From: a virus | DNA length: 41,102 nt | UHGV virus genome: UHGV-0210063 | Strand: one strand, 5' to 3' | Shown: one piece after another, positions 3,527 through 18,396 of the stretch | Numbering within the stretch: position 1 is the first letter of the stretch | Layout of the letters: each line of letters starts with the position of its first letter | Notes under the pieces: model-generated | What the model was told of the DNA's origin: nothing | The model's database searches: none | What the model saw: only the letters and a program-made list of their open reading frames with translations | Made by a program: the position numbers and the translations under genes

Positions 3527-3601
<75 letters not shown>

Positions 3602-3604
3602 ATA

Positions 3605-3680
<76 letters not shown>

Positions 3681-3716
3681 ATCAAGTAGCGCGCATTCTA
3701 ATCGCGTGGCCGAAAT

Positions 3717-3801
<85 letters not shown>

Positions 3802-3809
3802 GGACTTGA

Positions 3810-3885
<76 letters not shown>

Positions 3886-3887
3886 AC

Positions 3888-3964
3888 TGGACCGCCACCG
3901 GGGACTCGAACCTCGCACACTCAACTTAAAGGGTTGACGCTCTTTCCTGATGAGCTAGTGGCGG
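3888..3964 (-). tRNA. Atypical tRNA-like gene, anticodon loop CCUUUAA (UUU anticodon, C at position 33)
   Basis: 77 nt; perfect 7-bp acceptor stem C1-G72, D-arm with GG, 5-bp anticodon stem, TTCGAGT T-loop, CCA; non-canonical C33 and one T-stem mismatch. Confidence 0.5.
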
Positions 3965-3965
3965 C

Positions 3966-4041
3966 TGGTGGCCCTTGCTGGATTTGAACCAGCGACCTGG
4001 CGATTATGAGTCGCTCGCTCTCACCACTGAGCTAAAGGGCC
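3966..4041 (-). tRNA. tRNA-Ile2 (anticodon CAU, ileX-like; elongator Met not excluded)
   Basis: 76 nt; closely resembles E. coli ileX as recalled, anticodon loop CUCAUAA. Confidence 0.8.
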
Positions 4042-4150
4042 GAGCGCAGGATAATAACGTTACGAAATCAATGTTGCAAGCATTCAAAAATCACCCTTAT
4101 CTCCTCCACTAACGCATTAACCATGTCTATCCGAGATAAGTGGCACAAAA

Positions 4151-4182
4151 AACCCGCTTGTGGGCGGGTTTTGTTTGCTTTT
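4151..4182 (-). terminator. tR'-like terminator downstream of the Q-like gene (bidirectional hairpin)
   Basis: CCCGCCCACAAGCGGG hairpin followed by TTTTTTGTG on minus strand; also T-rich on plus strand. Confidence 0.5.
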
Positions 4183-4235
4183 GCCATCACGTACAAAATC
4201 GGCAAAATATCAGATTTGCATGAAATATATGCCTT

Positions 4236-4931
4236 TCAATCTACTTTTGCAACACTTTGCTTTGAAAATGCCGCCTTTTGTTTTGAACGTGTTCTCATTA
4301 CAAACAATAAAGCCTCACTATCAAGTCGGTGAAAAATGTGTTTCATTGCAACCCAGTGACGAGTAAATGTTTTGGACCAGTTTTTAGTTGTCACTCCCGC
4401 CAGTAATGCCAGCTCCTGGTATTCATAACCTTCCCCACCAAAAAGTTCTGCTTTTACTGCCTGCGCCGCCAGCCAGATTAATTTTTTCAGGCGTTCCTGC
4501 GTTTTCCCTGCAATTTTTCTGGTACCGGATTGAGTATTAAATTCATTCCACGCCCACTGTGTTATCGCGATCTGATATTCCCAACAAATACTCCCGCTGT
4601 AACACCACAACAACCAGGCTTTATGATGTTCTTCAAGAGACAGAACAGCCCGCCGCCACGATGATGTCGAAAACTCAACCGGACTGACCAGAGGAATTGA
4701 CGTCCCCTTCGCCAGCGATTGCTTTCCCGGGATTGGTGGATTATCCCGCGTTATCATTTTTCCAGTCACTTCATCGCGGTACCGGATTTTTTTTCGCCTG
4801 TAACGCCCTGTATCGAACATGGCATTCTCTTGCCAGGCTTCAAGCTGACCTTTTGTTGCCCCACTCAAATCAGCGGTGGCGATAATGAGCTGCTCACGCA
4901 CAAACTGTAAATACTGGTTATTCATGCGCAC
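4236..4931 (-). CDS. Putative late-gene antiterminator (Q-like), assigned by position
   Basis: 231-aa ORF between rusA and the tR'-like terminator/tRNAs/lysis genes; no zinc-finger motif recognised. Confidence 0.35.
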   Translation of the reverse strand: MRMNNQYLQFVREQLIIATADLSGATKGQLEAWQENAMFDTGRYRRKKIRYRDEVTGKMITRDNPPIPGKQSLAKGTSIPLVSPVEFSTSSWRRAVLSLEEHHKAWLLWCYSGSICWEYQIAITQWAWNEFNTQSGTRKIAGKTQERLKKLIWLAAQAVKAELFGGEGYEYQELALLAGVTTKNWSKTFTRHWVAMKHIFHRLDSEALLFVMRTRSKQKAAFSKQSVAKVD

Positions 4932-5287
4932 TCCAGTTCTGTGATTTTTATCCCCAGCCGCCCACCAGGAACGAGCTGACCGCGCACAATATTGATTTCA
5001 TCAAACTGCTCGTCGTCTATAAGTAGTCCGGCATGCGTCAGCGCATCCAGTGGTGCCTTCAGGATATTGTCCAGGTCGCGGCGGCGCTTATCCGGTGGCT
5101 CTGCAATAATCTTTATCGCCAGCCTTCCGGACAGGCTTAATTTCAGCCGCTGCTGGCGAACAATTAGCGCCACATCACGGCGATAACGCTTTCCGGCTTC
5201 CGAGATGAAATACGTATTGCCATGACGTCGCCAGTAGGTATTCACCGTCGGCGGGTAAGGCAAAACAAATTCTATGCGTTCAGTCAT
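4922..5287 (-). CDS. rusA: Holliday junction resolvase RusA
   Basis: 121 aa; RusA-like motifs (PPTVNTYWR..., DKRRRDLDN, GGRLGIKITE). Confidence 0.85.
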   Translation of the reverse strand: MTERIEFVLPYPPTVNTYWRRHGNTYFISEAGKRYRRDVALIVRQQRLKLSLSGRLAIKIIAEPPDKRRRDLDNILKAPLDALTHAGLLIDDEQFDEINIVRGQLVPGGRLGIKITELECA

Positions 5288-6271
5288 TCATGCTTTCCAC
5301 TTCAGGACACCCGAATTTCTCGCGTGCATTAAAAAACGAATCAGCAACAACAGCTGGCTGCCGTGTTTTTCTTCAAAATCTTTTACCCCGGCGTGCAGTT
5401 CGTTATGACATTTACGGCACAGCGGAATAACAAACAAATCATCAGCCTTTGTTCCCATCCCTCCCAGTCCATGACCAATGATGTGATGCGGATCATCTGC
5501 CTGATTACCGCACGTCATGCATTTCTGCGTTTTTACCCAACGCGTGTATACAGGCATCTCTTCCCGTTGTGGTTTCTGGCGCTGGAGATACTGAGCCGGT
5601 GACTCCGGATCAACGGCAATGCTGACCACCGTCTTGTCCTGTGGCGGGTTTTGCTGGTGGGCATGAGGCAACGGCGCAAGATTTTTTGTGCGCTGCTTCA
5701 GTATGCTGGTGGCGGTCTGCTCTCCCGGTACGATGTCGCTTTCGCGGTACAAGGAGCGGATTTTTTCCGCACGTAACCCCAGAGAACGACGTAATACTGC
5801 CTCCGGAAGCGCGTCCGCCACCTGATTGCAGACCGCCCACCAGGATAATTCAGCCAGCGACAATTCCCGCTCCTGCGTGCCATTCATTGCATGGCGTATG
5901 ACGTCAATCATCCATGCTGACAGGTTTTGATGAGCAAGTTGCCCGAGTGATTCGGATGTCTGGTCACGCAACTGGTTGTCGCAGTGCCAGCACAACACCA
6001 TCGCGCCGGTACCGTAACGATGTATGACGATTTCACTGTGATGATAGTCACCATGAGGCCACTGGCAGGATTTGACATGACGCAACAGCCAGTCAGACAG
6101 TGCCCCAGCGCCGCCAGCAGCACGAATCACCCGCTCATCGCTGAAAAATGGCAGTAATGATTTATCCTCCGCCAGCGGCTGGCGAACGGCAGGGACGACT
6201 CCGGACGGCAGACCGCGCATGCTTTTCGGTTCAGGCTCCACCAGCACTCGAGGGTTATGAAATACTTGCAT
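5288..6271 (-). CDS. DUF968-like protein with C-terminal HNH-like zinc motif (YdfU-like)
   Basis: C-terminus CMTCGNQADDPHHIIGHGLGGMGTKADDLFVIPLCRKCHNELH; ORF track starts at 6415 but that overlaps the upstream gene, so an internal ATG at 6271 is proposed. Confidence 0.55.
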   Translation of the reverse strand: MQVFHNPRVLVEPEPKSMRGLPSGVVPAVRQPLAEDKSLLPFFSDERVIRAAGGAGALSDWLLRHVKSCQWPHGDYHHSEIVIHRYGTGAMVLCWHCDNQLRDQTSESLGQLAHQNLSAWMIDVIRHAMNGTQERELSLAELSWWAVCNQVADALPEAVLRRSLGLRAEKIRSLYRESDIVPGEQTATSILKQRTKNLAPLPHAHQQNPPQDKTVVSIAVDPESPAQYLQRQKPQREEMPVYTRWVKTQKCMTCGNQADDPHHIIGHGLGGMGTKADDLFVIPLCRKCHNELHAGVKDFEEKHGSQLLLLIRFLMHARNSGVLKWKA

Positions 6272-6344
6272 GGATTCACGGCCCGGCCTAAGGACCACCA
6301 GCCCGAGTTCCGGTACCAGAACAGGTCGAAGTAATATCCGCACG

Positions 6345-6623
6345 TTACCTCCAGATCCGTTGCTGGTATGTGCGGGATGGGCGCGGTGGGCGTTCGGAAT
6401 AAGGGAGCCTGACATAGATTATCCAGTGACGATAATCGAGGCTGAGGGCTTTCTTAATCTCGTATCCGCGTCTGCGATAGTTATGAATTAGCCATTCGGC
6501 CTGTTCTTCAGTACATGGGTCATGCTGGAACCAGTCAGATTTGAAAGTGCGGGAACGCCGCCCGTGCCTGCTGGCAAAGACGGCAGAATCATCAGAATTG
6601 TGTAATTTGGTATCGTGCGCCAT
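6345..6623 (-). CDS. Hypothetical nin-region protein
   Basis: ORF track 6345..6704 begins with TTG inside a terminator; internal ATG at 6623 gives a 92-aa basic protein. Confidence 0.4.
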   Translation of the reverse strand: MAHDTKLHNSDDSAVFASRHGRRSRTFKSDWFQHDPCTEEQAEWLIHNYRRRGYEIKKALSLDYRHWIIYVRLPYSERPPRPSRTYQQRIWR

Positions 6624-6693
6624 CGGTTGTCTCTGCTGGCGCAGCAGGTGCCAGTTGTTCAGGCTGGCGTGCGAATTGTAAACCAGAATGCCA

Positions 6694-6722
6694 GGAAAAA
6701 ACAAAACCCGCCGAAGCGGGTA
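6694..6722 (-). terminator. Rho-independent terminator (UUCG tetraloop) after lipoprotein gene
   Basis: Minus strand ACCCGC-TTCG-GCGGGT followed by TTTTGTTTTTT. Confidence 0.6.
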
Positions 6723-6919
6723 TGCTAAAACAAACTGAAAGTAATATACCGGACTTGTAAAGGAACGATAGAATAATTATTGGATTAAACCCTGACTCAA
6801 TCCAGATTTCATAGGCAACAACTACGGACTAATCATCACAGTCATGTTTGATAGACTTAGTCCACATTGGGTGAGGGTTTACGGCGTTTTCACTAATAAT
6901 TTATCGTCCAAGCTATACA

Positions 6920-7312
6920 CTACTGCCCTGTTTTAACGAAGTTTTTAAAGGAAACAACTGCCTGATAGGGGTTTGGTTGACAGCCAAACATATTATCGCA
7001 AAAAGGCTTGATGAAAATTCTTGAGGATCCATCTTCATTTGGCATTTTACTCACTTGATAAGCGAGGAATGGACTATTTGGAGAGGGATTATAAGTGGAA
7101 ATTAGCGTGTCTGTCGCCGTTTGAATTTTCCATGAGGAATTATTAGCCAACCAGAATTGCGCTCGTTTCCAATAAAAGTCACATTGCTTTTCATCATTAC
7201 ATGTTAGTGGCTTCATTGCTTCTGCTTTCAACGCTGGATCGACCTTTGCTGCACACCCTCCCAACATTACTGTTGCAATCATTACACCTGCGACTAAAAC
7301 AAGTTTCTTCAT
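6920..7312 (-). CDS. Lipoprotein, function unknown (moron)
   Basis: 130 aa; signal peptide MKKLVLVAGVMIATVMLGGC with lipobox; about 41% GC by eye; flanked by hairpin terminators. Confidence 0.7.
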   Translation of the reverse strand: MKKLVLVAGVMIATVMLGGCAAKVDPALKAEAMKPLTCNDEKQCDFYWKRAQFWLANNSSWKIQTATDTLISTYNPSPNSPFLAYQVSKMPNEDGSSRIFIKPFCDNMFGCQPNPYQAVVSFKNFVKTGQ

Positions 7313-7455
7313 CTCCCTGCCCCATCAATAAAAGTTCGGTTCTCTAATAACTAGAGTTAATCAACGGAAAAAACGCCGAAGCGGGTTAAGTGCGGGTGCG
7401 TTGAGGATGCCTGACACATCAGAGGTGGCGAGGGATTTCTCCCCCGCCAGGTCTC

Positions 7456-7611
7456 TTACTCCTCAGGTTCGTAAGCTGTGAAGACAGCGACCTCCGTCTG
7501 GCCGGTTCGGATTCGTACCTCGCAGAGGTCTTTCCTCGTTACCAGTGCCGTCACAATGACGGTTAAACAGATGACGATCAGGGCGATTAACATCGCCTTT
7601 TGCTGCTTCAT
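7456..7611 (-). CDS. hokD: Hok/Gef-family type I toxin (HokD/RelF-like)
   Basis: 51 aa MKQQKAMLIALIVICLTVIVTALVTRKDLCEVRIRTGQTEVAVFTAYEPEE, recalled as matching E. coli HokD; ORF track gives an in-frame upstream extension to 7668. Confidence 0.8.
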   Translation of the reverse strand: MKQQKAMLIALIVICLTVIVTALVTRKDLCEVRIRTGQTEVAVFTAYEPEE

Positions 7612-7902
7612 AGCCTGCTTCTCCTTGCCTTTCGGCACGTAAGAGGCTAACCTAGATTTGCCGTTCATAGATTGAGCCTCAGATTAATGTTAAGCGTCTT
7701 GCAGGACGCGTAATGTTAACTGGGGCTTTTCTCTATCTGCCTTTTGGTGTTCATGCCTGAGACAGATAGCCTCAAGCACCCGCTGCAATTCTACTTAACT
7801 CTCCTTTTCCCGCAAACCGTTTTTATCCCCAGCGGCAAATCGAATACACCACCAGCGCCACAGCCATTGCGATTCCTGCCGTTGTAAATGCCTCAGGCCA
7901 GG

Positions 7903-8418
7903 TCATCGTAAAACATCCTCCACGCTTATCAGTCCATTTCGTTTCAGGTAATCCATCGCCATCTCCGGTAATTTGCAGTCTAGATTAGCTTTTTTCAGTT
8001 GACTGACCAGTCGTTTAACCCACATTGTTAATTCGCCAACCTGATTACTGGATGCTAGTGGATTGTCGGCTTTACCCAGAATGACAGCACAGCAGGCCTC
8101 TTTGAGTACCCAATCAACAGCATCTTTCCATGCTCCTGTTTCGACTGGTGGATTCTCACGCTTTACCTGTTCATAAAAGCGCACGGCTTTAACCAGTCCT
8201 TCTGATATCACAGGGACTGGCGGGGTAGTGAATAAGGCCTGAATCTCATAGCCCGGCCTGTCGTTGCACCCCTCTTTTGTCGGTACATATTTCCAGTCAC
8301 CAACCCACATCTTCTCCTGAAAGTCCGTAACGCCTTTTTTCACGTAGCGATATCGCCATGCAACTGGTTTTGCCTGCCCTGCCGTTTCATGCCCTTCCTG
8401 ATAATTAATCTCGCTCAT
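7903..8418 (-). CDS. Hypothetical nin-region protein (171 aa)
   Basis: Intact ORF with translationally coupled neighbours (ATGA overlaps). Confidence 0.5.
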   Translation of the reverse strand: MSEINYQEGHETAGQAKPVAWRYRYVKKGVTDFQEKMWVGDWKYVPTKEGCNDRPGYEIQALFTTPPVPVISEGLVKAVRFYEQVKRENPPVETGAWKDAVDWVLKEACCAVILGKADNPLASSNQVGELTMWVKRLVSQLKKANLDCKLPEMAMDYLKRNGLISVEDVLR

Positions 8419-8591
8419 TCATCGCCCCACTCATCACAATATGCTTCGACCGGAGTTTTTCCTGCTTCGTAGTCATCACGCCAGGCTTCAGCATCAGCAG
8501 CACTTCCACCACGTAACTCTGCATAGTCCATTAACAGTTCATGCCATTCTTCAAAACTGACGTTGTATTTAGTTGAACCAAAATCAGCCAT
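8415..8591 (-). CDS. Small acidic hypothetical protein (58 aa, hand-translated)
   Basis: ATG at 8591, TGA overlapping start of 7903..8418 gene; MADFGSTKYNVSFEEWHELLMDYAELRGG...; below the ORF-track length cutoff. Confidence 0.4.
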   Translation of the reverse strand: MADFGSTKYNVSFEEWHELLMDYAELRGGSAADAEAWRDDYEAGKTPVEAYCDEWGDE

Positions 8592-8766
8592 TTTGTTCTT
8601 CCTCTTCGTCTTTTATTTCGTGATATGAGTAATTGCAGTAGTTAAAGAAAATTTCTTTTGCTTCGTCATGAATTTCATCAGGTGTTGCGTCATCGTCCAC
8701 TTCGAATACATCCTCAAAATCTCCACCAGCTATTCCCGTTTCAATAATTATTTTGAACTTTCGCAT
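8584..8766 (-). CDS. Hypothetical small acidic protein (60 aa)
   Basis: ORF overlapping start of the downstream small gene. Confidence 0.4.
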   Translation of the reverse strand: MRKFKIIIETGIAGGDFEDVFEVDDDATPDEIHDEAKEIFFNYCNYSYHEIKDEEEEQNG

Positions 8767-9273
8767 TTCACTACCACCCTTTCGGGTGGCCTCCTGCTGT
8801 TCTGAGGGTGCAGAAATCCCTCCGGTTAAGGATTAAATTTTTAACAGTGCTAAATTTAATTATTCAGTTCTGGATTTTGTCACCCTGCGTATCCGTGCTT
8901 TCGCATTACGCTCAATCTGAATTAGCTTTTCTATATTTTTTCGCCTTTCCTGTTCCTCCTGGCGCAATAGTTTTACATCATCTGCCAGTCTGGTTTCTCT
9001 TTTCGCCACAGAGAGCATCCAGTCAAATGGCTCCACAACTGCACCGCAGATTTTACAGCGGACCTGACGCTCTTTTTCGTCAACCCGGACAGAAGCGTGA
9101 TGGCAGTATGGTCTTTCCTATGGCTCATAAAGAAAATTAACCTGATTACGTGGGTCATCCTCTTTTACCGGAAATAAAACAATATTACTTAACTCATCTT
9201 CTGGTTTTATTTCCATGCTCCTCTCCTTTGATGCGAATGCCAGCGGCAATTGAAGCCTGATAGCTAATTTCAC

Positions 9274-9696
9274 TTACAGTACCGCCTCCTGAAAATTACC
9301 CTGATAGAAAGCCAGTACACGCTGCATAGCTTCGCTCTTCCGGCACTCGCGACAGATTATATTCAGGCGCCTGTCGTAGCGGCGTATTTCTCCGTCTGGT
9401 AATGACCAGATAAGGTCCGGATCAACCGCAGATGGTTTCTTCGGCTTTGCCCTTGAGAGCTTTTTACGGGCATTTTGCCAGTCCTTACGCGCCTGTTCAG
9501 ACGGGAATAACCCGTAACCAGAGTTGTATACATCGCCACTGGCAACCAGCTCTCTGGCCAGAACGCTCATCAGATATCTTGTTGCCCCAGTTTTAGTTTC
9601 CAGTTGTCGTAACGTCTCGCGCCCACTCTGGCGTACGAGTTCAACAACCTGCCCTTTAATTTTTTCCCGCTCTTCTTGTGTAAAAACTTTTGCCAC
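9274..9696 (-). CDS. Hypothetical protein downstream of replication initiator (possible replication partner)
   Basis: 140-aa basic ORF after the O-like gene; no AAA+ or helicase-loader motifs seen. Confidence 0.45.
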   Translation of the reverse strand: MAKVFTQEEREKIKGQVVELVRQSGRETLRQLETKTGATRYLMSVLARELVASGDVYNSGYGLFPSEQARKDWQNARKKLSRAKPKKPSAVDPDLIWSLPDGEIRRYDRRLNIICRECRKSEAMQRVLAFYQGNFQEAVL

Positions 9697-9736
9697 AAGC
9701 CCTCCTGAAAATTACCTCATGACCAGAAATTAACAC

Positions 9737-10813
9737 TTACCCCCTGAAGCCCGGCGGAATTTCGTTATCCGGTTCAGAAATATGATTCACACAACGCTGG
9801 TTGTTCGTGCCGCTTACCGGGAGCAACCAGGGGTTCTCAAAATTCCGGTCCGGTCCAAAAAACGTCGTCGCTCGCTGAACAAATTCCGTTCCCGTTTTCC
9901 CGGTAGCCGCCAAGTATCTTGCGTAACGCCTCACGCCATCCAGCATGGCCTCTGGTGGCACCCCCTCGCGTAATCTGGCCTTCCAGGCACTGAAAGCGGA
10001 TTTCTTCGGGTTTGCTCCGGCACGCAACGGGTACTCCCGCCAGACCTGTTCGAACACATCCGGATAATCCACTCGTCCCACAGACTGCCCGGTGCTTTCC
10101 GGGACTACCCGATCGGCTTCCCGCTGAATGGCGGAATCGGCTTCAGGCTGCTGCAGTTGGTGTGATTGCTCCGGCCTTGCGGTCATCACCTGCTGCACAG
10201 CGCCCGAATCGGCTTTCAGCGCATACGCTGAATCGGCTTCCGGTGTCGTGCCTGCTGGCTGACCAGGATTGACGGTCTGAACATCCCCTGCCTGGTTCGT
10301 GGCGTTTTTTACGCCATGAACCATAGTGTTTTGATCTTCTTGATCTGTATCTTTATCTGTATCTTTATCTGTCGTGACTCGTCGTGACATGTGCGTGACA
10401 TTTCGTGACGCGCCGTGACAATCGCCATTTTGTTCCCGCTTTCTTTCCCTCTCTCGCTGCGCCCTCTTGCGCTCTGCAGGAGATTTTGCGGTTTGCGAAA
10501 TATTGCCGTTGTCCTCTTTAAGCACCTGGCGTTTTTCCCATCCAGTGATTAAATCACCATCAAGTACCCGCCCCTGCATCGTCTGCAAAATTGAATCAAT
10601 TACCTCTTCTGTCACGTCGAGCGCACTTGCCAAATCTTCTGTCGTGACATCAATGTGACCTCGCGTGACATTTCGTGACGCGCTCACCAGGAGGTGGATA
10701 TACACTGCCATCACTGTTGCAATTGGCTGCCCTGACACCCTGGCAATTGTTCGCCACTTAGGGTCATTTGGCATGTCATGCCATAATCTGAGCCAGGCGT
10801 TAGCCATACTCAC
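9737..10813 (-). CDS. Replication initiator, O-like (YdaU/DUF1376-like) containing the origin iterons
   Basis: 358 aa; N-terminus WLRLWHDMPNDPKWRTIARVSG; internal iteron clusters; position after cro/CII-like genes. Confidence 0.65.
   Translation of the reverse strand: MSMANAWLRLWHDMPNDPKWRTIARVSGQPIATVMAVYIHLLVSASRNVTRGHIDVTTEDLASALDVTEEVIDSILQTMQGRVLDGDLITGWEKRQVLKEDNGNISQTAKSPAERKRAQRERERKREQNGDCHGASRNVTHMSRRVTTDKDTDKDTDQEDQNTMVHGVKNATNQAGDVQTVNPGQPAGTTPEADSAYALKADSGAVQQVMTARPEQSHQLQQPEADSAIQREADRVVPESTGQSVGRVDYPDVFEQVWREYPLRAGANPKKSAFSAWKARLREGVPPEAMLDGVRRYARYLAATGKTGTEFVQRATTFFGPDRNFENPWLLPVSGTNNQRCVNHISEPDNEIPPGFRG
10343..10378. repeat. Tandem 12-bp repeat (ATCTGTATCTTT, about 2.5 copies)
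   Basis: Direct tandem copies; encodes DKDTDKDTD on the minus strand. Confidence 0.7.
10371..10420. repeat. Iteron cluster A (5 CGTGAC repeats at 10-11 bp spacing), putative ori
   Basis: CGTGAC at 10373, 10383, 10394, 10404, 10414. Confidence 0.65.
10611..10682. repeat. Iteron cluster B (3-4 CGTGAC repeats plus one inverted copy), putative ori
   Basis: CGTGAC at 10643, 10664, 10674, GTGAC at 10655, inverted GTCACG at 10611; shares a 20-bp exact repeat GCGTGACATTTCGTGACGCG with cluster A. Confidence 0.65.
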
Positions 10814-10878
10814 CTCTTCTGATACCGAATCTTTTTACTCACGAGTTGCCGGAAGCGATTCGATATGGCTATTATCAC

Positions 10879-11304
10879 TCAATGCACTGCCACAGCATTT
10901 CCTGCCGGGCCACCACGGTTCATCTGATTGAAACCGGCGATTGCCACTGCGACAAAATCATCGGCGTCTCTCACCAGTCGCTCCCGCGTCTCCACCAGCT
11001 CCCGAAAATAAGCTGAACTGTGGCTACGCATTCTGGCCACCAGCAAAGGTGGCATTGCCTTTTCGATCGCTGGTAACAACGCCTGAATTTTTTCAACTGC
11101 ATCAGGGGTGTCTTTCTCTACCCAGCGGAAAATTTTCTGGGTATTGCGAGCCAGGGCTTCCGGATGGCTGTCGTCGTACAGTTCAGGAAACGTCATACCC
11201 AACTCAAAATAAGCCTGGGTTATTCCAGCTGCCGGAACTTTTTCGCCATCAGGACGCGCCCAGGCATTCATCGCCATGCGGATGTGTTCATGCTTGATTT
11301 TCAT
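10879..11304 (-). CDS. YdaT-like protein (CII-like regulator of Rac-type prophages)
   Basis: 141 aa from internal Met (MKIKHEHIRMAMNAWARPDGEK...); directly follows the cro-like gene. Confidence 0.55.
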   Translation of the reverse strand: MKIKHEHIRMAMNAWARPDGEKVPAAGITQAYFELGMTFPELYDDSHPEALARNTQKIFRWVEKDTPDAVEKIQALLPAIEKAMPPLLVARMRSHSSAYFRELVETRERLVRDADDFVAVAIAGFNQMNRGGPAGNAVAVH

Positions 11305-11530
11305 GAATCCCCCCTTGGTTAGAAGGCGGATTATGATCAGAACCGGGAATGACAACCGTCGGTATGTGTAACTCATATTTGAGCGCCCCGGCAGTGACTG
11401 CCTGAATTAGCAACGCCCATTTCCACGGAACCTCTTCCCCCCACATGCTGACTGTGGTTTTTGACGTTCCTAGAGCTGCGGCTGTTTTAACAACTCCGCC
11501 AAAATAGCCTAATACTTCTGATTTTTTCAT
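11288..11530 (-). CDS. Cro-like / YdaS-like HTH regulator
   Basis: 80 aa MKKSEVLGYFGGVVKTAAALGTSKTTVSMW...; GGAG ribosome-binding site; divergent from cI. Confidence 0.65.
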   Translation of the reverse strand: MKKSEVLGYFGGVVKTAAALGTSKTTVSMWGEEVPWKWALLIQAVTAGALKYELHIPTVVIPGSDHNPPSNQGGIHENQA

Positions 11531-11621
11531 GAGTCGCTCCATAAAACTGAACGCCAAAAGTTTAATAATCAAAACCAAAGAAAGTCAAGAAACAAAACCA
11601 TCTGTGTTTTAAAATCAAAAC

Positions 11622-12260
11622 ATGAGCAAGCAAACAATATCTGAACGCATAACCCAACGTATGCATGCGCTAAACCTGAAAGGCAAAGACCTTGTCAATG
11701 CCACTGGCGCATCAAAAGGCTCCGTAAGTCAATGGATGAACGGTGGAGGAGCGCCGTCCTCGCGTTACATAAGTTCACTGGCAAAAATATTGAAAGTAAA
11801 CGAAAATTGGCTTCTTAATGGAGGAGAGTTAAATACAGGTGATTCGCTTGATCTATCTTTACCGCCGATAAAAACGGTTCCGCTACTATCACTTCAGCAG
11901 GCAGCAAGCTGGAGTGATTATATGAAAAATTCCTCAATAACCTCTTGTGTGCAGCTTGTCGGAGAAATCCCGGCCAATACCTTTGCAGTTGTTCTAGAGA
12001 GTGACAGTATGTCAACATCTGGTGGGGGAGTTTCCATCCCAAATGGTTCAACAGTTTTTGTTGATCCCGATCGAACCGTACAACCAGGAAATATTGTCCT
12101 TGCCTTACCCAAAGGGACCACAACACCTGTCATTCGTAAACTGGAGATAGAAGGGCCGGATATTCTTTTAGTCCCCACGAATCCTCGCTACCCTTCAATT
12201 ATGCTGGATGATCTATCTTGCATATTGGGCGTATGCTTTAAAATTCAACAAGATATTTAA
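11622..12260 (+). CDS. CI-like repressor (HTH plus S24 LexA-type peptidase domain)
   Basis: 212 aa; N-terminal HTH (GASKGSVSQWMNGG) and C-terminal domain; divergent from cro-like gene. Confidence 0.8.
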   Translation: MSKQTISERITQRMHALNLKGKDLVNATGASKGSVSQWMNGGGAPSSRYISSLAKILKVNENWLLNGGELNTGDSLDLSLPPIKTVPLLSLQQAASWSDYMKNSSITSCVQLVGEIPANTFAVVLESDSMSTSGGGVSIPNGSTVFVDPDRTVQPGNIVLALPKGTTTPVIRKLEIEGPDILLVPTNPRYPSIMLDDLSCILGVCFKIQQDI

Positions 12261-12334
12261 CCGACCTCATCTATTTGATTAACTGTATGCCATCGTGGTG
12301 ATGGCTTAACAGCTGCCTGCTTAAAATGTTTTGA

Positions 12335-12363
12335 TAAAAAAACATTGACCTGAAAAGTTCATT
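12335..12363 (+). promoter_or_regulatory. Candidate sigma70 promoter of the ydfABC-dicF-dicB operon
   Basis: TTGACC, 17-bp spacer, TAAACT; palindrome CCATCGTGGTGATGG at 12290..12304 may be an operator. Confidence 0.3.
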
Positions 12364-12552
12364 TTTCTAAACTTCATTCATTCCCTCTCCCCACCCCACA
12401 GAATGCAGGGCAATACTTCGAGTTACCAGGCAGTGGTCAGGGGTTAAGTAGCCAGCCTGAGGCGTAAGAACATGACGGCAGGGTTCAACTTTAATAACTA
12501 TGCAGCAGGTTTTTGTTCCGCTACCCCGGCGTTAAGGGGAAATGAGGTCAAC

Positions 12553-12708
12553 ATGGATACTATCGATCTTGGCAACAACGAATCTCTGGTGTACGGCGTG
12601 TTTCCCAACCAGGACGGCACGTTCACCGCGATGACGTATACCAAAAGCAAAACGTTTAAAACCGAAAATGGTGCCCGTCGCTGGCTGGAAAGAAACTCAG
12701 GTGAGTGA
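12553..12708 (+). CDS. ydfA: YdfA (DUF1391) of dicB operon
   Basis: MDTIDLGNNESLVYGVFPNQDGTFTAMTYTKSKTFKTENGARRWLERNSGE, matches Qin YdfA as recalled. Confidence 0.8.
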   Translation: MDTIDLGNNESLVYGVFPNQDGTFTAMTYTKSKTFKTENGARRWLERNSGE

Positions 12709-12709
12709 T

Positions 12710-12838
12710 ATGGATTTCGACACAATCATGAAAAAGGCTTACGAAGAATACTTCGAAGGCCTTGCCGAAGGCGAAGAAGCCCTCAGCTTCAGTGAGTTTA
12801 AACAGGCGCTTTCCAGCTCGGCAAAATCTAACGGCTGA
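12710..12838 (+). CDS. ydfB: YdfB small protein of dicB operon
   Basis: Hand-translated 42 aa MDFDTIMKKAYEEYFEGLAEGEEALSFSEFKQALSSSAKSNG; 1-bp gap after ydfA. Confidence 0.7.
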   Translation: MDFDTIMKKAYEEYFEGLAEGEEALSFSEFKQALSSSAKSNG

Positions 12839-12867
12839 TAAGCGAAGCAGCACCGCGAGGAATCAGT

Positions 12868-13086
12868 ATGCAGAAACGAGAACCCGTCATCATCGCGCCA
12901 GACTATACCGATGATGAACTTTATGAGTGGATGCGCCAGAAAATTAATGCAGCGCAGGATCTGAAATGGGCCAATGAAGCCAGGGCTAAGCAGGCTGAAA
13001 ATCTGTCCGCTCTGGAGCAGGATATCACCAGGCTGGAAAAAGCAGCGGCATTAAGCATTGCCAGAATGATTACATACCCGCGTTAA
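12868..13086 (+). CDS. ydfC: YdfC of dicB operon
   Basis: 72 aa MQKREPVIIAPDYTDDELYEWMRQKINAAQDLKWANEARAKQAENL... Confidence 0.8.
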   Translation: MQKREPVIIAPDYTDDELYEWMRQKINAAQDLKWANEARAKQAENLSALEQDITRLEKAAALSIARMITYPR

Positions 13087-13221
13087 TAGCTAACCAACGA
13101 AGCTAAGGTTGGTAATTAAGGAGTTCTCCACGGGTAAGGTGGAGTGCGTGCGCCGGACACGGGTGAGCATCCGGCACGTTCTTTAAAAATCTGGATAGTC
13201 CCAACTTATTTAAACGGTTAA

Positions 13222-13653
13222 TTATCTTGAGTTCATCCAGAACTTATTATTGCAAGCGGGGCAAAAAGTACGAAAATGAGCATCAAGGCGCATTATTTCC
13301 ATTGGCTGCAGTACAGATATTACCTTTTTTCCAAAACATTGTGGGCAAAGATGCACTGTTATCTCGGTATCGCCTATAAATTGCTTCTTGGAATACACAA
13401 GAGTTCCAGAATCAAGCTTGTTAAGTTTGTAACCTTCCGCCTGTTGCTGAAAGTCTTCTATCTCTGCAATTTTTGCTTTGAGAGATGCGGCTTCTTCCTG
13501 ATAAGAGCGCACCATCTCAATGAGCGATACGCATTCAAACTGAACAGACGTAAGTTTTGAAAGCATATCGCTGACAGCGGAATTTATCTCAGTTTGAGTT
13601 TTGGCATTCAGAATACCCTTTGCCATTACCGCAGTTTCTTTGATTGCCGACAT
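13222..13653 (-). CDS. Hypothetical coiled-coil protein with C-terminal zinc ribbon; antisense moron inside the dicB operon
   Basis: 143 aa from ATG at 13653 (MSAIKETAVMAKG...); two CxxC pairs (CPQC, CPAC); AT-rich; ORF track extends to a GTG at 13797, but a promoter lies inside that extension. Confidence 0.6.
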   Translation of the reverse strand: MSAIKETAVMAKGILNAKTQTEINSAVSDMLSKLTSVQFECVSLIEMVRSYQEEAASLKAKIAEIEDFQQQAEGYKLNKLDSGTLVYSKKQFIGDTEITVHLCPQCFGKKVISVLQPMEIMRLDAHFRTFCPACNNKFWMNSR

Positions 13654-13689
13654 TGCTGCTGAGAACTCAACTATCACGTTACTTACTCT

Positions 13690-13746
13690 TCTCGTTGTTG
13701 GGGATATCCGGATTATACAAATTTCTTGTTGTTGGGGAATAACAGG
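13690..13746 (-). promoter_or_regulatory. Candidate promoter of the antisense moron with flanking direct repeats
   Basis: Extended -10 TGTATAAT (plus-strand 13712..13719) flanked by direct repeats TTGTTGGGGA at 13694..13703 and 13728..13737. Confidence 0.4.
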
Positions 13747-13988
13747 AACCACCTCGCCTGATGTGGTTAAAAGCAGGCACACAACACGAAAGCGCACGGC
13801 GAGGCTGTTAGCTCATAAATGGTCTGTCGTTAAATTTTCGTCGACCGTGCGCTCTCGGTTGTGGCACTCCGCGAAATGGCGCGACGGTAAGTATGGCGGG
13901 GTTATTCCTTCCCCGTTGAGGACACCGGGTTGTCAGGTTGACCATACGCTTAAGTGACAACCCCGCTGCAACGCCCTCTGTTATCAAT

Positions 13989-14041
13989 TTTCTGGTGACG
14001 TTTGGCGGTATCAGTTTTACTCCGTGACTGCTCTGCCGCCC
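13989..14041 (+). ncRNA. dicF: DicF small RNA (ftsZ-targeting sRNA)
   Basis: 53-nt UUUCUGGUGACGUUUGGCGGUAUCAGUUUUACUCCGUGACUGCUCUGCCGCCC followed by T-run; matches recalled E. coli DicF. Confidence 0.85.
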
Positions 14042-14215
14042 TTTTTAAAGTGAATTTTGTGATGCGGTGAATGCGGCTAAGCGCACGCGGAACAGTTAAA
14101 ACCAAAAACAGTGTTATGGGTGGATTCTCTGTATCCGGCGTTAATTGTTAACTGGTTAACGTCACCTGGAGGCACCAGGCACCGCATCACAAAATTCATT
14201 GTTGAGGACGCGATA

Positions 14216-14404
14216 ATGGAAACGTTATTACCAAACGTTAATACGTCTGAAGGCTGTTTTGAAATTGGCGTCACTATCAGTAACCCTGTATTTACTGAAG
14301 ATGCCATTAACAAGAGAAAACACGAACGGGAGTTATTAAATAAAATATGCATTCTTTCAATGCTGGCCCGTTTACGTCCGATACAAAAAGGATGCTGGCA
14401 ATGA
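14216..14404 (+). CDS. dicB: Cell division inhibitor DicB
   Basis: 62 aa METLLPNVNTSEGCFEIGVTISNPVFTEDAINKRK...; internal start of ORF 14111..14404. Confidence 0.85.
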   Translation: METLLPNVNTSEGCFEIGVTISNPVFTEDAINKRKHERELLNKICILSMLARLRPIQKGCWQ

Positions 14405-14589
14405 ATCCAGTATTTGCACTTATTCTGACGGTTTTTCTTGTTTCCGGAGAGCCAGTTGATATTGCAGTCAGTGTTCACAGAACAATGCAGGAATGTATGG
14501 CCGCAGCAACCGAACAGAAAATTCCAGGCAACTGTTATCAGGTCGATAAAGTTATTCACCAGGATAACGAAATCCCGGCAGGATTTTAA
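14392..14589 (+). CDS. ydfD: YdfD-like small membrane protein
   Basis: MLAMNPVFALILTVFLVSGEPVDIAVSVHRTMQECMAAATEQ...; overlaps dicB stop. Confidence 0.7.
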   Translation: MLAMNPVFALILTVFLVSGEPVDIAVSVHRTMQECMAAATEQKIPGNCYQVDKVIHQDNEIPAGF

Positions 14590-14682
14590 AACAGCACCGT
14601 AATAAATATCCAGTTTCATTCTTATATGTCAGCAATGGCAGAGATTTGTTCACCCTTAAATCTGTGATGAGGTTTATCAATA

Positions 14683-17109
14683 ATGAGCACTGATAAAGAA
14701 GAATTTGCACTATATTGCGAAGCAAAAAATGACAAAGTAAGAAAACGCCTGGGAATTAAAGGTGGTTTTTACTGGACTACAGCAAAAAAATTATCTGTTG
14801 CAATCTCCCGCTGCATTACCGCAATGGATGACAACGATTATGATGAAGACGACTTTAAAAAACCCGTCCGCGTCAATTTGCCCGTTGTTGACGACCTTCC
14901 GCCAGAAGGCGTGTTTGATACTGAATTCTGCAACCGCTATGAAAAAGGCGGGAAAGATGGCATCACAATGACATTTATCGGCCCTTCCCCCTCTGTTCAG
15001 GACAAACCAGCCAGCACTGACAATACCAACATCAACGGCGAAGACATGACTGAGATTGAGGAGAGCATGCTTCTGCCTGTCTCCGGTCAGGAACTGCCCA
15101 TTCGTTGGCTTGCTCAACACGGCAGCGAAAAACCAGTAACGCACGTTTCACGCGACGAACTCCAGGCATTACACATTGCACGGGCTGAAGAACTACCGGC
15201 TGTTACTGCCCTGGCTATTTCGCATAAAACCAGTCTGCTCGACTCGCTGGAGATTCGCGACCTCCACAAACTGGTTCGTGACACTGACAAAGTTTTCCCT
15301 AATCCTGGTAATTCAGACCTGGGACTAATAACTGCTTTTTTCGAAGCATACCTGGACGCTGACTACACTGATCGGGGGCTGCTGACAAAAGAGTGGATGA
15401 AAGGAAATCGTGTTTCACGCATCATCCGCACGGCTTCCGGTGCTAATGCTGGCGGTGGGAACAAAACCGATCGCAATCCGAATTTAGTACACACCCTAGA
15501 CACACTGGATGTGGAGATTGCAGCAGCCACACTTCCGATGGATTTTAATATTTATGAAATTCCGGGCAGCGTTTATCGTCGCGCAAAAGAAGTAGTCCTG
15601 AAAAAAGAAAGTCCGTTCAAAGAATGGTCCGCAGCACTTCGTGCAACCCCGGGTATTCTGGACTATTCCCGCGCCGCTATTTTTGCACTTATCCGAAGCG
15701 CACACCCTGAATTTTATCACTACCCGGGACGCCTTCAGGGGTATATCAACGCCTATTTGACGGAAACTGATCACGAGAACCCCAGCAAGGAAACTCTCAC
15801 AGCTGCCCGGCATACGCCGGAAAAAGATATCCTGGAAGAAATTAACCGCGAGGTGGTTACTGAACGTGAAACAGAAGAAGAAAAACCACAACCATCTGAC
15901 GCAATGGCAGGTGAACAGGCAACAACTGAAACAATGGAACCGGCTACAACTGAACATTGCCAGAACGCTCAGTCGCAGGTGAGTTCCGCTAACCAAGTAA
16001 AAGTCACCGCTGACGAAGTAAACAAAATTATGCAGGCAGCCAATATCAGCCAGCCTGACGCCGATAAGTTACTTGCTTTATCGCGTGATGAATTTGTTGA
16101 GGGGATTAGCGACCCTAATGATCCGAAATGGGTCAAGGGGATCCAGACTCGCGATTCTGTGAACCAGAACCAGCATGAATCGGAACGGAACGACCAAAAA
16201 GCGGAACAAAACAGCCCAAATGCGTTACAAAACGAGCCAGAAACGAAACAATCCGAACCAGTAGCGCAACAGGAACCGGAAAAAGTCTGCACCGCCTGCG
16301 GTCAGAGCGGTGGCGGCAACTGCCCTGATTGTGGCGCGGTGATGGGCGACGCAACATACCAGGAAACATTCGATGAAGAGAATCAGGTTGAAGTTCAGGA
16401 AAATGATCCGGAGGAAATGGAAGGCGCTGAACATCCACACAAGGAGAACCCTGGCGGCAATCAGCATCACGCCAGCGATAATAAAACTGGCGAGGCGACA
16501 GATCCCTTAATTAAGGTGAATGGTCATCATAAGCTCACATCCACCAGCAGAGCGGGGATTCATCTGATGATCGACCTTGAAACCATGGGAAAAAATCCCG
16601 ATGCCCCGATTATCTCAATAGGCGCAATATTTTTCGATCCACAAACCGGAGATATGGGACCGGAATTTAGCAAGACCATCGATCTGGATACTGCTGGCGG
16701 AGTCATTGATCGTGACGTCATTAAATGGTGGCTGAAGCAATCACGTGAGGCGCAGTCTGCCATTATGACCGATGAAATCCCGTTAGATGATGCACTACTG
16801 CAATTGCGGGAATTTATCGACGAAAACTCCGGTGAATTTTTTGTTCAGGTCTGGGGTAATGGGGCCAACTTCGACAACGTGATTTTACGCCGTTCATACG
16901 AACGACAGGGTATCCCCTGCCCGTGGCGCTACTGCAACGATCGCGATGTACGCACAATCGTTGAGCTGGGGAAAGCCATAGACTTCGATGCCAGAACTGC
17001 TATCCCATTCGAAGGTGAGCGCCATAATGCACTTGATGACGCTCGTTACCAGGCAAAATACGTTTCAGCTATCTGGCAAAAACTGATCCCGAGTCAGGCT
17101 GATTTTTAA
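14683..17109 (+). CDS. Large early protein with C-terminal DEDDh (DnaQ-like) 3'-5' exonuclease domain (prophage 'exonuclease VIII-like' family)
   Basis: 808 aa; C-terminus HLMIDLETMG...WGNGANFDNVIL...HNALDDARYQAKY; acidic middle region with CTACGQSGGGNCPDCGAV zinc ribbon; upstream of xis/int. Confidence 0.6.
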   Translation: MSTDKEEFALYCEAKNDKVRKRLGIKGGFYWTTAKKLSVAISRCITAMDDNDYDEDDFKKPVRVNLPVVDDLPPEGVFDTEFCNRYEKGGKDGITMTFIGPSPSVQDKPASTDNTNINGEDMTEIEESMLLPVSGQELPIRWLAQHGSEKPVTHVSRDELQALHIARAEELPAVTALAISHKTSLLDSLEIRDLHKLVRDTDKVFPNPGNSDLGLITAFFEAYLDADYTDRGLLTKEWMKGNRVSRIIRTASGANAGGGNKTDRNPNLVHTLDTLDVEIAAATLPMDFNIYEIPGSVYRRAKEVVLKKESPFKEWSAALRATPGILDYSRAAIFALIRSAHPEFYHYPGRLQGYINAYLTETDHENPSKETLTAARHTPEKDILEEINREVVTERETEEEKPQPSDAMAGEQATTETMEPATTEHCQNAQSQVSSANQVKVTADEVNKIMQAANISQPDADKLLALSRDEFVEGISDPNDPKWVKGIQTRDSVNQNQHESERNDQKAEQNSPNALQNEPETKQSEPVAQQEPEKVCTACGQSGGGNCPDCGAVMGDATYQETFDEENQVEVQENDPEEMEGAEHPHKENPGGNQHHASDNKTGEATDPLIKVNGHHKLTSTSRAGIHLMIDLETMGKNPDAPIISIGAIFFDPQTGDMGPEFSKTIDLDTAGGVIDRDVIKWWLKQSREAQSAIMTDEIPLDDALLQLREFIDENSGEFFVQVWGNGANFDNVILRRSYERQGIPCPWRYCNDRDVRTIVELGKAIDFDARTAIPFEGERHNALDDARYQAKYVSAIWQKLIPSQADF

Positions 17110-17167: not shown

Positions 17168-17371
17168 ATGAGCAGCTTATTTTTAACCGAAGATGAATTG
17201 CTAATATTAACGGGCTGCAAATATGCAAGCCACCAGCGAAAATGGTTAATGGAAAACGGGCTTCCGTTCTATACCAATCGTAGTGGCAAACCGATTGTCA
17301 GCCGGGATCTATTTACCTGCAATAAAACTTTACCACCACGCGAGGTAGAGCCGAATTTTGGTGCGATCTGA
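17168..17371 (+). CDS. xis: Putative excisionase (DUF4224-like)
   Basis: 67 aa directly upstream of and overlapping int start; LTEDELLILTGCKY...NRSGKPIV pattern. Confidence 0.55.
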   Translation: MSSLFLTEDELLILTGCKYASHQRKWLMENGLPFYTNRSGKPIVSRDLFTCNKTLPPREVEPNFGAI

Positions 17372-18396
17372 TGGGAAGACGAAGGAAAAATCCTGAACAC
17401 GAAAAATTACCTCCAAATGTATACCCAAATAAATATAGTTATGTATGGAAACCAACATCCAGAGAATCTGTCACACTAACCGCCATCAAGGATGGTTTAG
17501 CTGCTTTATGGAAAAAGTATGAGGAAACTGTAAATAATCGCGATCGTGCAATGACATTCGGTCGCTTGTGGGAAAAATTCCTCGCCAGCGCCTATTACAG
17601 TGACCTTAGTCCAAGAACACAAAAAGATTATCTGCAACATCAAAAAAAGTTGCTTGCCGTATTCGGTAAGGTACCAGCGGATTCCATAAAACCAGAACAC
17701 ATCCGTCGATACATGGACAAAAGAGGGGAGCAGAGTAAAACGCAAGCCAACCATGAAAAAAGCAGTATGTCCCGTGTTTACAGTTGGGGGTATGAGCGAG
17801 GGTACGTCAAGGCTAACCCATGTGCAGGTGTAAGTAAATTCAAGGCCAAAAACCGCGAACGATATGTAACCGACAAAGAATACCAGGCAGTATTAAGCGT
17901 TGCACCTCTTCCTGTTTTTATCGCAATGGAAATTGCCTATCTGTGTGCAGCGAGGGTTTCCGATGTGTTATCGCTGAAATGGGAACAGATTGGAAACGAC
18001 GGGATATTCATCCAGCAAGGGAAAACCGGAAAAAAACAGATAAAAGCATGGAGTCCACGATTACAGGCAGCGATCGAAAAAGCAAAACAGTTACCAAAAT
18101 CTGCCTATGTGATCAGCAATCAATACGGCAACCGATATATGTACAAAGGCTTTAACGAAATGTGGGTAGAAGCAAGAAATCGTGCTGGAAAAATTTCAGG
18201 TATTTTAACCGACTTCACCTTTCATGATCTGAAGGCGAAAGGAATTTCAGACTATGAAGGAAGCAGCCGGGATAAGCAACTTTTCTCTGGTCACAAAACC
18301 GAAGGGCAAGTGCTAATCTATGACAGGAAGGTTAAAGTTTCACCAACACTTGATGTCCCGTTACCTGAAAATATTCCAAGAAAATATTCCAAGTAA
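17371..18396 (+). CDS. int: Tyrosine-type site-specific integrase
   Basis: 341 aa; C-terminal catalytic region (HDLKAKG...GHKTEGQVLIYDRK); adjacent to tRNA-Ser fragment. Confidence 0.85.
   Translation: MGRRRKNPEHEKLPPNVYPNKYSYVWKPTSRESVTLTAIKDGLAALWKKYEETVNNRDRAMTFGRLWEKFLASAYYSDLSPRTQKDYLQHQKKLLAVFGKVPADSIKPEHIRRYMDKRGEQSKTQANHEKSSMSRVYSWGYERGYVKANPCAGVSKFKAKNRERYVTDKEYQAVLSVAPLPVFIAMEIAYLCAARVSDVLSLKWEQIGNDGIFIQQGKTGKKQIKAWSPRLQAAIEKAKQLPKSAYVISNQYGNRYMYKGFNEMWVEARNRAGKISGILTDFTFHDLKAKGISDYEGSSRDKQLFSGHKTEGQVLIYDRKVKVSPTLDVPLPENIPRKYSK

Follow-up and report, generated by a model that had tools for sequence, protein, structure and literature searches.

The lambdoid phage genome UHGV-0210063 (41,102 nucleotides; this whole stretch of DNA is referred to below as the window) carries, at positions 14683-17109 of the plus strand, an exonuclease gene whose 808-aa product was found to be a two-module protein, comprising a RecE-type N-terminal region (aa 1-610) and a DEDDh exonuclease domain (aa 625-808). 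From sequence comparison, the gene appears to be a recE in which the nuclease head has been exchanged at a sharp recombination junction. In the loci compared, the annealase RecT, which accompanies RecE, was encoded after every PD-(D/E)XK head and after none of the DEDDh heads. The protein may trim or remove DNA 3' ends in lytic growth, and this proposal is weighed below against a role in defence and against three weaker alternatives.

Domain organization and the DEDDh nuclease domain

The open reading frame (ORF) given in a preliminary description of this DNA proved to be real: it is present on the ORF list, opens with an ATG start and is complete, encoding 808 aa followed by a stop. Unless stated otherwise, the features described here are located on the plus strand. 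Two Pfam domains were identified in the deduced protein, namely Exonuc_VIII (PF06630, the RecE N-terminal family) at aa 57-189 (nt 14851-15249; 125.2 bits against a cutoff of 25, E=4e-36), followed by PF16473 at aa 627-798 (222.7 bits against a cutoff of 27, E=3.5e-66), the latter match covering model positions 2-177 of 177. The PF16473 match confirmed the DEDDh family by Pfam assignment, and a weak match to RNase_T is in keeping with the DEDDh fold.

The nuclease domain, which belongs to the DexA/Rv2179c family, extends over aa 625-808 (nt 16555-17106), as delimited by PF16473, residue conservation, structure prediction and structural comparison. DEDDh motifs had previously been placed in the C-terminal ~230 aa; the assignment holds, with the domain being smaller (~185 aa). 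All three motifs that define the DEDDh superfamily are present, i.e. the Exo I D-x-E motif (D631 and E633, within MIDLET), the Exo II aspartate (D731, within NFDN) and the Exo III H-x4-D motif (H781 and D786, within HNALDD). The corresponding codons are located at 16573-16575 (D631), 16579-16581 (E633), 16873-16875 (D731), 17023-17025 (H781) and 17038-17040 (D786). In an alignment of the last 208 aa with 51 homologues (52 sequences in total, at 39-49% identity), D631 was shown to be invariant, while E633, D731, H781 and D786 were each at least 90% conserved, and the catalytic pentad is thereby kept.

An AlphaFold2 model of the domain, generated from that alignment, exhibited an RNase H-like alpha/beta fold with a mean predicted local distance difference test (pLDDT) score of 90.2 and a predicted template modelling score of 0.85. 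When this model was compared with solved structures using Foldseek, T4 DexA (8KEN/8KEL) was the top match (E~2e-11, template modelling score 0.70), followed by RNase T, oligoribonuclease (Orn) and REXO2, with a probability of 1.00. Profile alignment of the domain with DexA using hhalign (probability 99.3) aligned the catalytic D-E-D-H-D residues, and T4 DexA itself scores above the PF16473 cutoff. The C-terminus is, by family, an intact DEDDh 3'-5' exonuclease, its polarity and activity being predicted. The PF16473-type nuclease family is large, with 11,772 clusters at 50% identity (E<=0.001), which are mostly stand-alone proteins of ~180-200 aa, and with matches in 732 of the 50,697 phage records searched, which represent a wide range of hosts.

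The RecE-type N-terminal region and linker

BLASTP aligned aa 58-610 of the protein with residues 50-591 of the Rac prophage RecE of Escherichia coli K-12 at 58% identity, rising to ~90% over aa 117-270, and this alignment takes in a four-cysteine motif and the acidic stretch ahead of the nuclease. Together with the PF06630 match, this identity places the region in the RecE N-terminal family. An earlier claim that the architecture differs from that of RecE is accurate for the catalytic head and inaccurate for the N-terminal region, which is homologous to RecE. In RecE, residues 564-866 constitute the nuclease and the N-terminal domain has no assigned function (2023 review, PMC11611040); linear-linear recombination was reported to be boosted by full-length RecE and not by the nuclease domain alone (PMC11611040, citing Fu 2012).

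The N-terminal ~550 aa had been described as acidic and of low complexity. This did not hold for aa ~1-375 (nt 14683-15807), a region common to RecE with an isoelectric point (pI) of 5.3, which is conserved across genera, contains the invariant motifs VVDDLPxEG, DRGLLxKEW, GGGxxTDR and LDYSRA, and is subject to purifying selection (ratio of non-synonymous to synonymous substitution rates 0.1-0.45). The model predicted this region to be folded (pLDDT 78.5), with one disordered loop at aa 102-128. The description did apply to aa 376-624 (nt 15808-16554), a variable and probably disordered linker with a pI of 4.5, a net charge of -30 and a content of 50% Q/N/S/T/P/E, as judged from composition and alignment occupancy; occupancy was low over aa 376-525, and a short acidic motif resembling 'QMEE' is conserved near aa 577-582.

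The zinc ribbon reported earlier is present in the form of a zinc-ribbon-like four-cysteine motif, CTACGQSGGGNCPDC (aa 536-550, nt 16288-16332; C536, C539, C547 and C550), which is limited to Escherichia-derived forms. This CxxC-x7-CxxC motif is shared by the window protein, Rac RecE and the remaining DEDDh forms of Escherichia origin, i.e. it occurs with both head types, and was missing from homologues of the same architecture in every other genus examined.

A sequence search of the N-terminal region against the Protein Data Bank returned noise at best (E=0.44), and its folded part showed no match to viral models at E<=0.001 using Foldseek. A glycine-rich loop (GANAGGGNKT) was considered as a Walker A motif and rejected, as it does not fit the pattern, its lysine is replaced by Leu in RecE and pLDDT is low at this position. 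Five homologues, from Citrobacter, Atlantibacter, Kluyvera, Phytobacter and Kosakonia (L011, L012, L020, L056 and L071), contain an extra N-terminal segment of ~110-150 aa (alignment columns ~150-300), whose resemblance to the helical segment that follows it suggests an internal duplication.

Exchange of the nuclease head and its link to RecT

Alignment of the gene with Rac recE at the DNA level revealed long runs of identity through the zinc-ribbon motif and the linker, with the two sequences being unalignable past ~nt 16512, at the border between linker and nuclease. This mosaic junction (16507-16518), where high-identity DNA homology to Rac recE ends, corresponds to aa 610/611, and the BLASTP alignment to RecE likewise stops at aa 610. 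The proposed head exchange is based on this coincidence of domain border and homology limit, together with the occurrence of closely similar N-terminal regions on PD-(D/E)XK heads (see below). A Chi site (GCTGGTGG), found by pattern search on the minus strand at 16541-16548, lies inside the gene ~30 nt past the junction. This in-gene site is also present in the DEDDh-headed genes of phage Tritos and of locus L004, the 13-mer around it was recovered from 64 of the 80 viral loci, and the site was missing from the RecE-type genes checked.

The two-domain architecture is old and stable, as both Pfam domains were carried by nine of ten long homologues (40-60% identity). In a cross-genus scan, for which one genome per species was used and which yielded 80 loci in other genomes, mostly of other Enterobacteriaceae, fused forms represented 25 of the 80 loci. 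Genera with the fused form were Escherichia, Citrobacter, Klebsiella, Kluyvera, Pluralibacter, Dryocola, Buttiauxella, Kosakonia, Leclercia, Enterobacter, Atlantibacter and Phytobacter. A second sample consisted of 80 viral contigs collected through the N-terminal region, 62 of which carried the DEDDh head.

Other heads were also encountered on this region. At three loci (L128, L131 and L132), an N-terminal region that is 91-94% identical to that of the window protein bears a PD-(D/E)XK head of the Rac type, with RecT encoded downstream, while L169 combines the Rac-type head and RecT with a more Rac-like N-terminal region. Four viral contigs (L136, L130, L137 and L158) carry a divergent PD-(D/E)XK (DUF3799) head followed by a divergent RecT, and represent a third head type. 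In L136 (6001-10229), for example, a 1041-aa protein that is ~91% identical to the window protein over aa 1-596 and has a longer linker and a PF12684 domain is followed by a 367-aa divergent RecT-family protein.

When all loci were combined, RecT was found at none of the 92 loci with the N-terminal region plus DEDDh head and at all eight loci with a PD-(D/E)XK head (8/8), counts that overstate independence since the loci are kin. RecT was likewise absent from all 55 loci encoding a stand-alone DEDDh form. In these loci, the annealase thus travels with the nuclease head, being tied to the PD-(D/E)XK type, and is independent of the RecE-type module. Mosaicism also extends into the N-terminal region, since in the 823-aa form of Tritos, E. 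albertii and E. ruysiae the first 270 aa are unrelated.

This natural head swap shows that the RecE N-terminal region can apparently work independently of RecT and of nuclease polarity, which narrows the hypotheses on why full-length RecE behaves differently in recombineering. The head swap and the strict link to RecT are regarded as the most useful results of this analysis, being of relevance to annotation and to experiments on the RecE N-terminal region.

Distribution and annotation

The protein had been treated as an oddity, a view that was overturned by its distribution: it is already catalogued, common and ordinary. It is 100% identical to WP_021511942.1 of E. coli EC21GDE043, annotated as 'exonuclease', and database proteins of exactly this sequence occur on 277 contigs. 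DNA encoding the nuclease domain was detected in 4065 of 5426 complete E. coli genomes (75%), at up to seven matching places per genome, and is thus more frequent than the segment encoding the RecE nuclease and RecT, which was detected in 1750 of the 5426. The gene can decay in resident prophages, as deduced from E. coli strain 148, a cattle isolate, in which the fused exonuclease gene (L089, 813-4597) is split by an IS1203 insertion.

RefSeq often names the protein '3'-5' exoribonuclease'. The other frequent name, 'exodeoxyribonuclease VIII', is a misnomer because the DEDDh head replaces the PD-(D/E)XK head of RecE, and this label, or a RecE label, wrongly implies a 5'-3' recombination nuclease. 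A literature search returned nothing on Rv2179c in connection with prophages, on PF16473 or on exonuclease VIII in connection with DicB.

Genomic setting and search for an annealase partner

The phage genome is represented in reverse orientation in the window. Its leftward early operon has the order cI-like repressor, ydfA/B/C-like genes, DicF small RNA (sRNA), dicB, DUF1482 gene, exonuclease gene, xis and int. DicF is located at 13990-14041 (Rfam, 76.7 bits), dicB at 14216-14404 (Pfam DicB) and the DUF1482/ydfD-like gene at 14401-14589 (Pfam DUF1482), with the RefSeq annotation of the identical prophage as further evidence for this context. Downstream, Pfam identified a DUF4224 excisionase-like gene (17168-17371) and a tyrosine integrase gene (17371-18396), with no gene between the exonuclease gene and xis/int. 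The order exonuclease gene, xis, int was conserved in all 23 homologous loci from other genera (23/23), while linkage to DicF was seen, among the loci examined, only in those of E. coli and E. coli phages. In 16 of the 23 other-genus loci, the gene immediately preceding that of the fused exonuclease specifies a winged-helix protein of the Rrf2 family (~113-127 aa); these Rrf2 genes (L008-L071) are located ~200-570 nt upstream, where dicB and the DUF1482 gene are found in E. coli.

No promoter-like site was detected on the plus strand between ~12373 and 17509, in a scan that performed no better than on shuffled sequence; the same was true of a terminator scan, and both scans represent weak evidence. 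The pseudogene ydfE of the K-12 Qin prophage, which occupies the same position after dicB-ydfD, was tried as a remnant of the gene and rejected, as BLASTP revealed no similarity.

The earlier statement that no RecT- or Bet-like partner is present was borne out by searches of annotated genes and additional frames. Using tblastn, no matches to RecT, RalR, RcbA, RacC, YdaE or KilR were obtained in the window, nor was any match to the RecE nuclease domain. At Pfam-level sensitivity, none of the annealase, SSB and Gam families (RecT, Erf, Rad52, SSB, Gam) was found among the annotated early genes. The same families were missing when Pfam was applied to 117 additional frames (stop to stop, minimum length 45 aa) in the interval 4000-14700, i.e. 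no RecT-like partner was hidden in an overlooked frame. Equally, no annealase family was observed among the six genes flanking each of the 23 other-genus fused loci.

Among stand-alone relatives of the nuclease, one is encoded directly after Erf and SSB (L046, 5874-7545), and others are encoded directly after a Sak4-like AAA_24 protein and a ~200-aa protein (L049 and L051, 5690-7545). Neighbours over 45 stand-alone loci also include DUF2303 (5) and PrtN-like (5) proteins.

Three further features of the window were recorded. A 191-aa ORF (13222-13797, minus strand; PHROG 1244) lies on the opposite strand within the leftward early operon; it exhibits weak matches to SLATT_5, under the Pfam cutoff, and to DRT-associated SLATT, as well as a C-terminal CPQC...CPAC motif, and may represent a moron, i.e. 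an accessory gene acquired by insertion, with a possible function in defence. A hok/sok-type toxin-antitoxin locus (7606-7781, minus strand) is located in the same early region (Rfam sok, 112 bits; Hok/Gef Pfam match). Six tRNA genes (Gly-tcc, Thr-tgt x2, Tyr-gta, Lys-ttt and Met-cat) are present at 3527-4041 on the minus strand, between the Q antiterminator and lysis genes.

Chi content and phage class

Over its full length (1-41102), the window contains 19 Chi sites against 1.5 +/- 1.2 expected, a number reached in none of 100 shuffles. These sites are divided 14/5 between the strands, with the 14 being on the minus strand, which corresponds to the conventional top strand, and are concentrated in two areas, close to the terminase end and within the replication/late-regulation part. 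In a survey of 314 lambdoid phages, those lacking recombination genes of their own, or lacking a RecBCD inhibitor, were shown to be Chi-rich and were proposed to use host RecBCD (PMC12315714, 2025). That survey lists a nuclease-only, Chi-rich class with Tritos as its prototype (Table 1), in which the strand split of Chi sites ranges from 21/6 to 7/2. DnaQ-like nucleases were noted there as well, both within the recombination modules of lambdoid phages and close to int, and RecBCD-aided growth has been demonstrated for phage LLS only (PMC12315714). The phage analysed here falls in the Tritos-type class, i.e. nuclease only, no annealase and Chi-rich: its Chi sites are abundant with an orientation bias, and no annealase, SSB or Gam was detectable by Pfam in the early region.

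Proposed role and alternative explanations

We propose, with a probability of about one half, that the protein trims or removes DNA 3' ends in lytic growth, as an accessory alongside host RecBCD/RecA. The gene would be expressed from the leftward early operon upon induction or infection, and the enzyme would use two-metal-ion catalysis to release nucleotides from free 3' ends, more likely those of DNA than of RNA. The RecE-type module would act as a carrier, so that the nuclease head reaches whichever partner or DNA-end substrate RecE itself uses. The phage would rely on the host RecBCD-Chi-RecA pathway for recombination-dependent growth, a dependence that we infer from its Chi-rich, annealase-free genome, with the enzyme playing an auxiliary part in lytic DNA metabolism by trimming or degrading 3' DNA ends.

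DNA 3' ends are favoured as the substrate because the carrier otherwise bears a double-stranded DNA (dsDNA) exonuclease, because the nearest solved relative, DexA, is a DNA exonuclease, and because stand-alone relatives adjoin Erf-SSB or Sak4-like recombination genes. The protein would not be a recombinase of the Red/RecET type, since 3' tails would not be made and no annealase is present. The lack of a promoter-like site just upstream is a weak indication of early-operon expression.

Several points weigh against this proposal, beyond the kinship of the loci counted above. That the N-terminal module serves as a carrier is purely inferential, and neither solved structures nor predicted viral models yielded a fold matching it. 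DNA exonucleases of 3'-5' polarity usually inhibit recombination (PMC12315714, citing Lovett 2011), and DnaQ-type genes near int were not counted as part of a recombination module unless contiguous with module genes (PMC12315714). Furthermore, the E. coli DexA homologue EcD acts in defence and not in recombination (PMC12153337), and the family includes the proven exoribonuclease Rv2179c, which weakens the case for a DNA substrate. As in the preliminary description, in which the role was left undecided between recombination, anti-defence and RNA processing, several competing readings stand.

The strongest rival, albeit an improbable one, is that the prophage carries the gene for defence by superinfection exclusion, the product being a nuclease of the HREX/EcD kind, which would digest the modified-cytosine DNA of T-even phages and spare host DNA and its own. 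Membership of the Pfam family of T4 DexA argues for such a role, as does the finding that EcD degrades T4 DNA containing 5-hydroxymethylcytosine (5hmC), and not unmodified dsDNA, and protects cells from T4 (PMC12153337). Bacterial DexA homologues were reported mostly from Escherichia, Citrobacter and Klebsiella (PMC12153337), genera that carry homologues in the present analysis too, and the retention of the domain in three-quarters of E. coli genomes, at several places in some, would fit a benefit to the host. However, the 5hmC-recognition residues W152 and D169 of DexA were aligned by hhalign to C751 and A765 of the window protein, the alignment of the D169 loop being uncertain, and are not conserved: the family consensus has Trp at the first 5hmC position, where the window protein reads PWRYCNDRD. 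The DexA-type catalytic residues are present. In addition, the gene closes an early-left operon that is under repressor control, and the scan gave no separate promoter-like site for it, the full protein matches no PADLOC defence model, and EcD is a different protein. The accession of the window protein and those of three other fused proteins are not among the homologues listed in the part of PMC12153337 consulted.

An RNA substrate, an anti-defence or scavenging function and a cryptic annealase are weaker alternatives than defence. The first of these, an exoribonuclease similar to Rv2179c or RNase T that trims or degrades RNA 3' ends in lytic growth, for example those of DicF, host tRNAs or sRNAs, is considered unlikely. 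PF16473 takes its name from the exoribonuclease Rv2179c, the fold is also near those of RNase T and oligoribonuclease, the RefSeq name is often that of an exoribonuclease, and the operon includes the DicF sRNA, ~650 nt ahead of the gene. Against this, the N-terminal module is otherwise found on a dsDNA exonuclease, the DNA exonuclease DexA gave the best match in both structural and profile comparisons, and stand-alone relatives adjoin Erf, Sak4-like and SSB genes; the proximity of DicF, moreover, was confined to E. coli and E. coli-phage loci among those examined, with an Rrf2-type regulator upstream in most of the other-genus loci.

More doubtful still is an anti-defence or scavenging nuclease acting on retron multicopy single-stranded DNA, cDNA of defence reverse transcriptases, linear oligonucleotide signals or host DNA fragments. 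Placement in the early operon, a fold similar to that of the short-oligonucleotide degraders Orn and REXO2, and the documented host-DNA scavenging role of DexA (PMC12153337) are compatible with it. Nothing specific was found in its favour, however, as no defence or counter-defence model was matched, and the RecE-type carrier module would be left unexplained. Furthermore, we know of no temperate lambdoid phage that degrades host DNA wholesale. The least probable explanation is a self-contained recombinase in which the N-terminal region or a small neighbour supplies annealing as a one-protein RecET equivalent: the N-terminal region has no known fold and full-length RecE has the effect on linear-linear recombination described above, but 3'-5' digestion leaves 5' tails and the Red and RecET annealases use 3' tails, no annealase family was found in any early-region frame scanned, and, because the same region on a PD-(D/E)XK head keeps RecT (8/8), it does not replace an annealase.

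As a tentative extension of the proposed trimming of DNA 3' ends, the RecE N-terminal region could be a portable targeting module used by lambdoid phages for interchangeable nuclease heads of opposite polarity (PD-(D/E)XK, 5'-3', combined with RecT; DEDDh, 3'-5', lacking an annealase), directing each to the same host partner or DNA end. If so, the DEDDh version, which is the commoner one in E. coli, would represent annealase-independent end processing that operates with RecBCD/Chi and not against it. Given the presence of the domain in about three-quarters of complete E. coli genomes, whether it helps recombinase-less, Chi-rich phages to replicate or, in the manner of EcD, protects lysogens against T-even phages is cheaply decidable.

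Comparison with known systems

The gene holds the place in the early-left operon, next to xis/int, that corresponds to the Red genes (exo/bet/gam) of lambda, in agreement with the earlier description of one large protein at this position. Compared with lambda Red and other two-component recombinases, the predicted nuclease polarity is opposite, the fold is different, and no annealase or RecBCD inhibitor was detected.

Rac RecE resembles the window protein in its homologous N-terminal region of ~600 aa, with PF06630, the four-cysteine motif and the acidic linker, and both genes are located in an early-left operon upstream of xis/int. The RecE head is a PD-(D/E)XK 5'-3' dsDNA exonuclease, corresponding to the PF12684 domain of the RecE-like L136 protein, whereas the head of the window protein is of the DEDDh type, with no similarity past RecE aa 591, and the adjacent RecT of RecE has no counterpart downstream of the window gene.

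The founding PF16473 member, Rv2179c of Mycobacterium tuberculosis, belongs to the same DEDDh family and is a stand-alone bacterial exoribonuclease that has been described as the diverged counterpart of RNase T (PMC8628891, citing Abendroth 2014); in contrast to the window protein, it lacks a RecE-type module and a phage context. T4 DexA shares PF16473 with the window protein and is its best structural match, yet the two nuclease domains are only ~22-26% identical and DexA contains extra loops. Both DexA and EcD are small, stand-alone proteins, whereas the window protein bears a 610-aa N-terminal extension. As deduced from its primers, EcD starts with MIDTET and ends with TIPETYD, and its relation to the window protein is known at the family level; the EcD 3' primer sequence had no exact match in IMG/VR.

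The closest counterpart in organization is Tritos (OV696610), whose 823-aa exonuclease (TRITO_27) differs in residues 1-270, which are non-homologous to those of the window protein and have no PF06630 match. Its linker is 69-87% identical and its nuclease domain 94% identical to those of the window protein, and the gene, which likewise has no annealase partner, occupies the same dicF-dicB-ydfD-exo-xis-int order as in the window.

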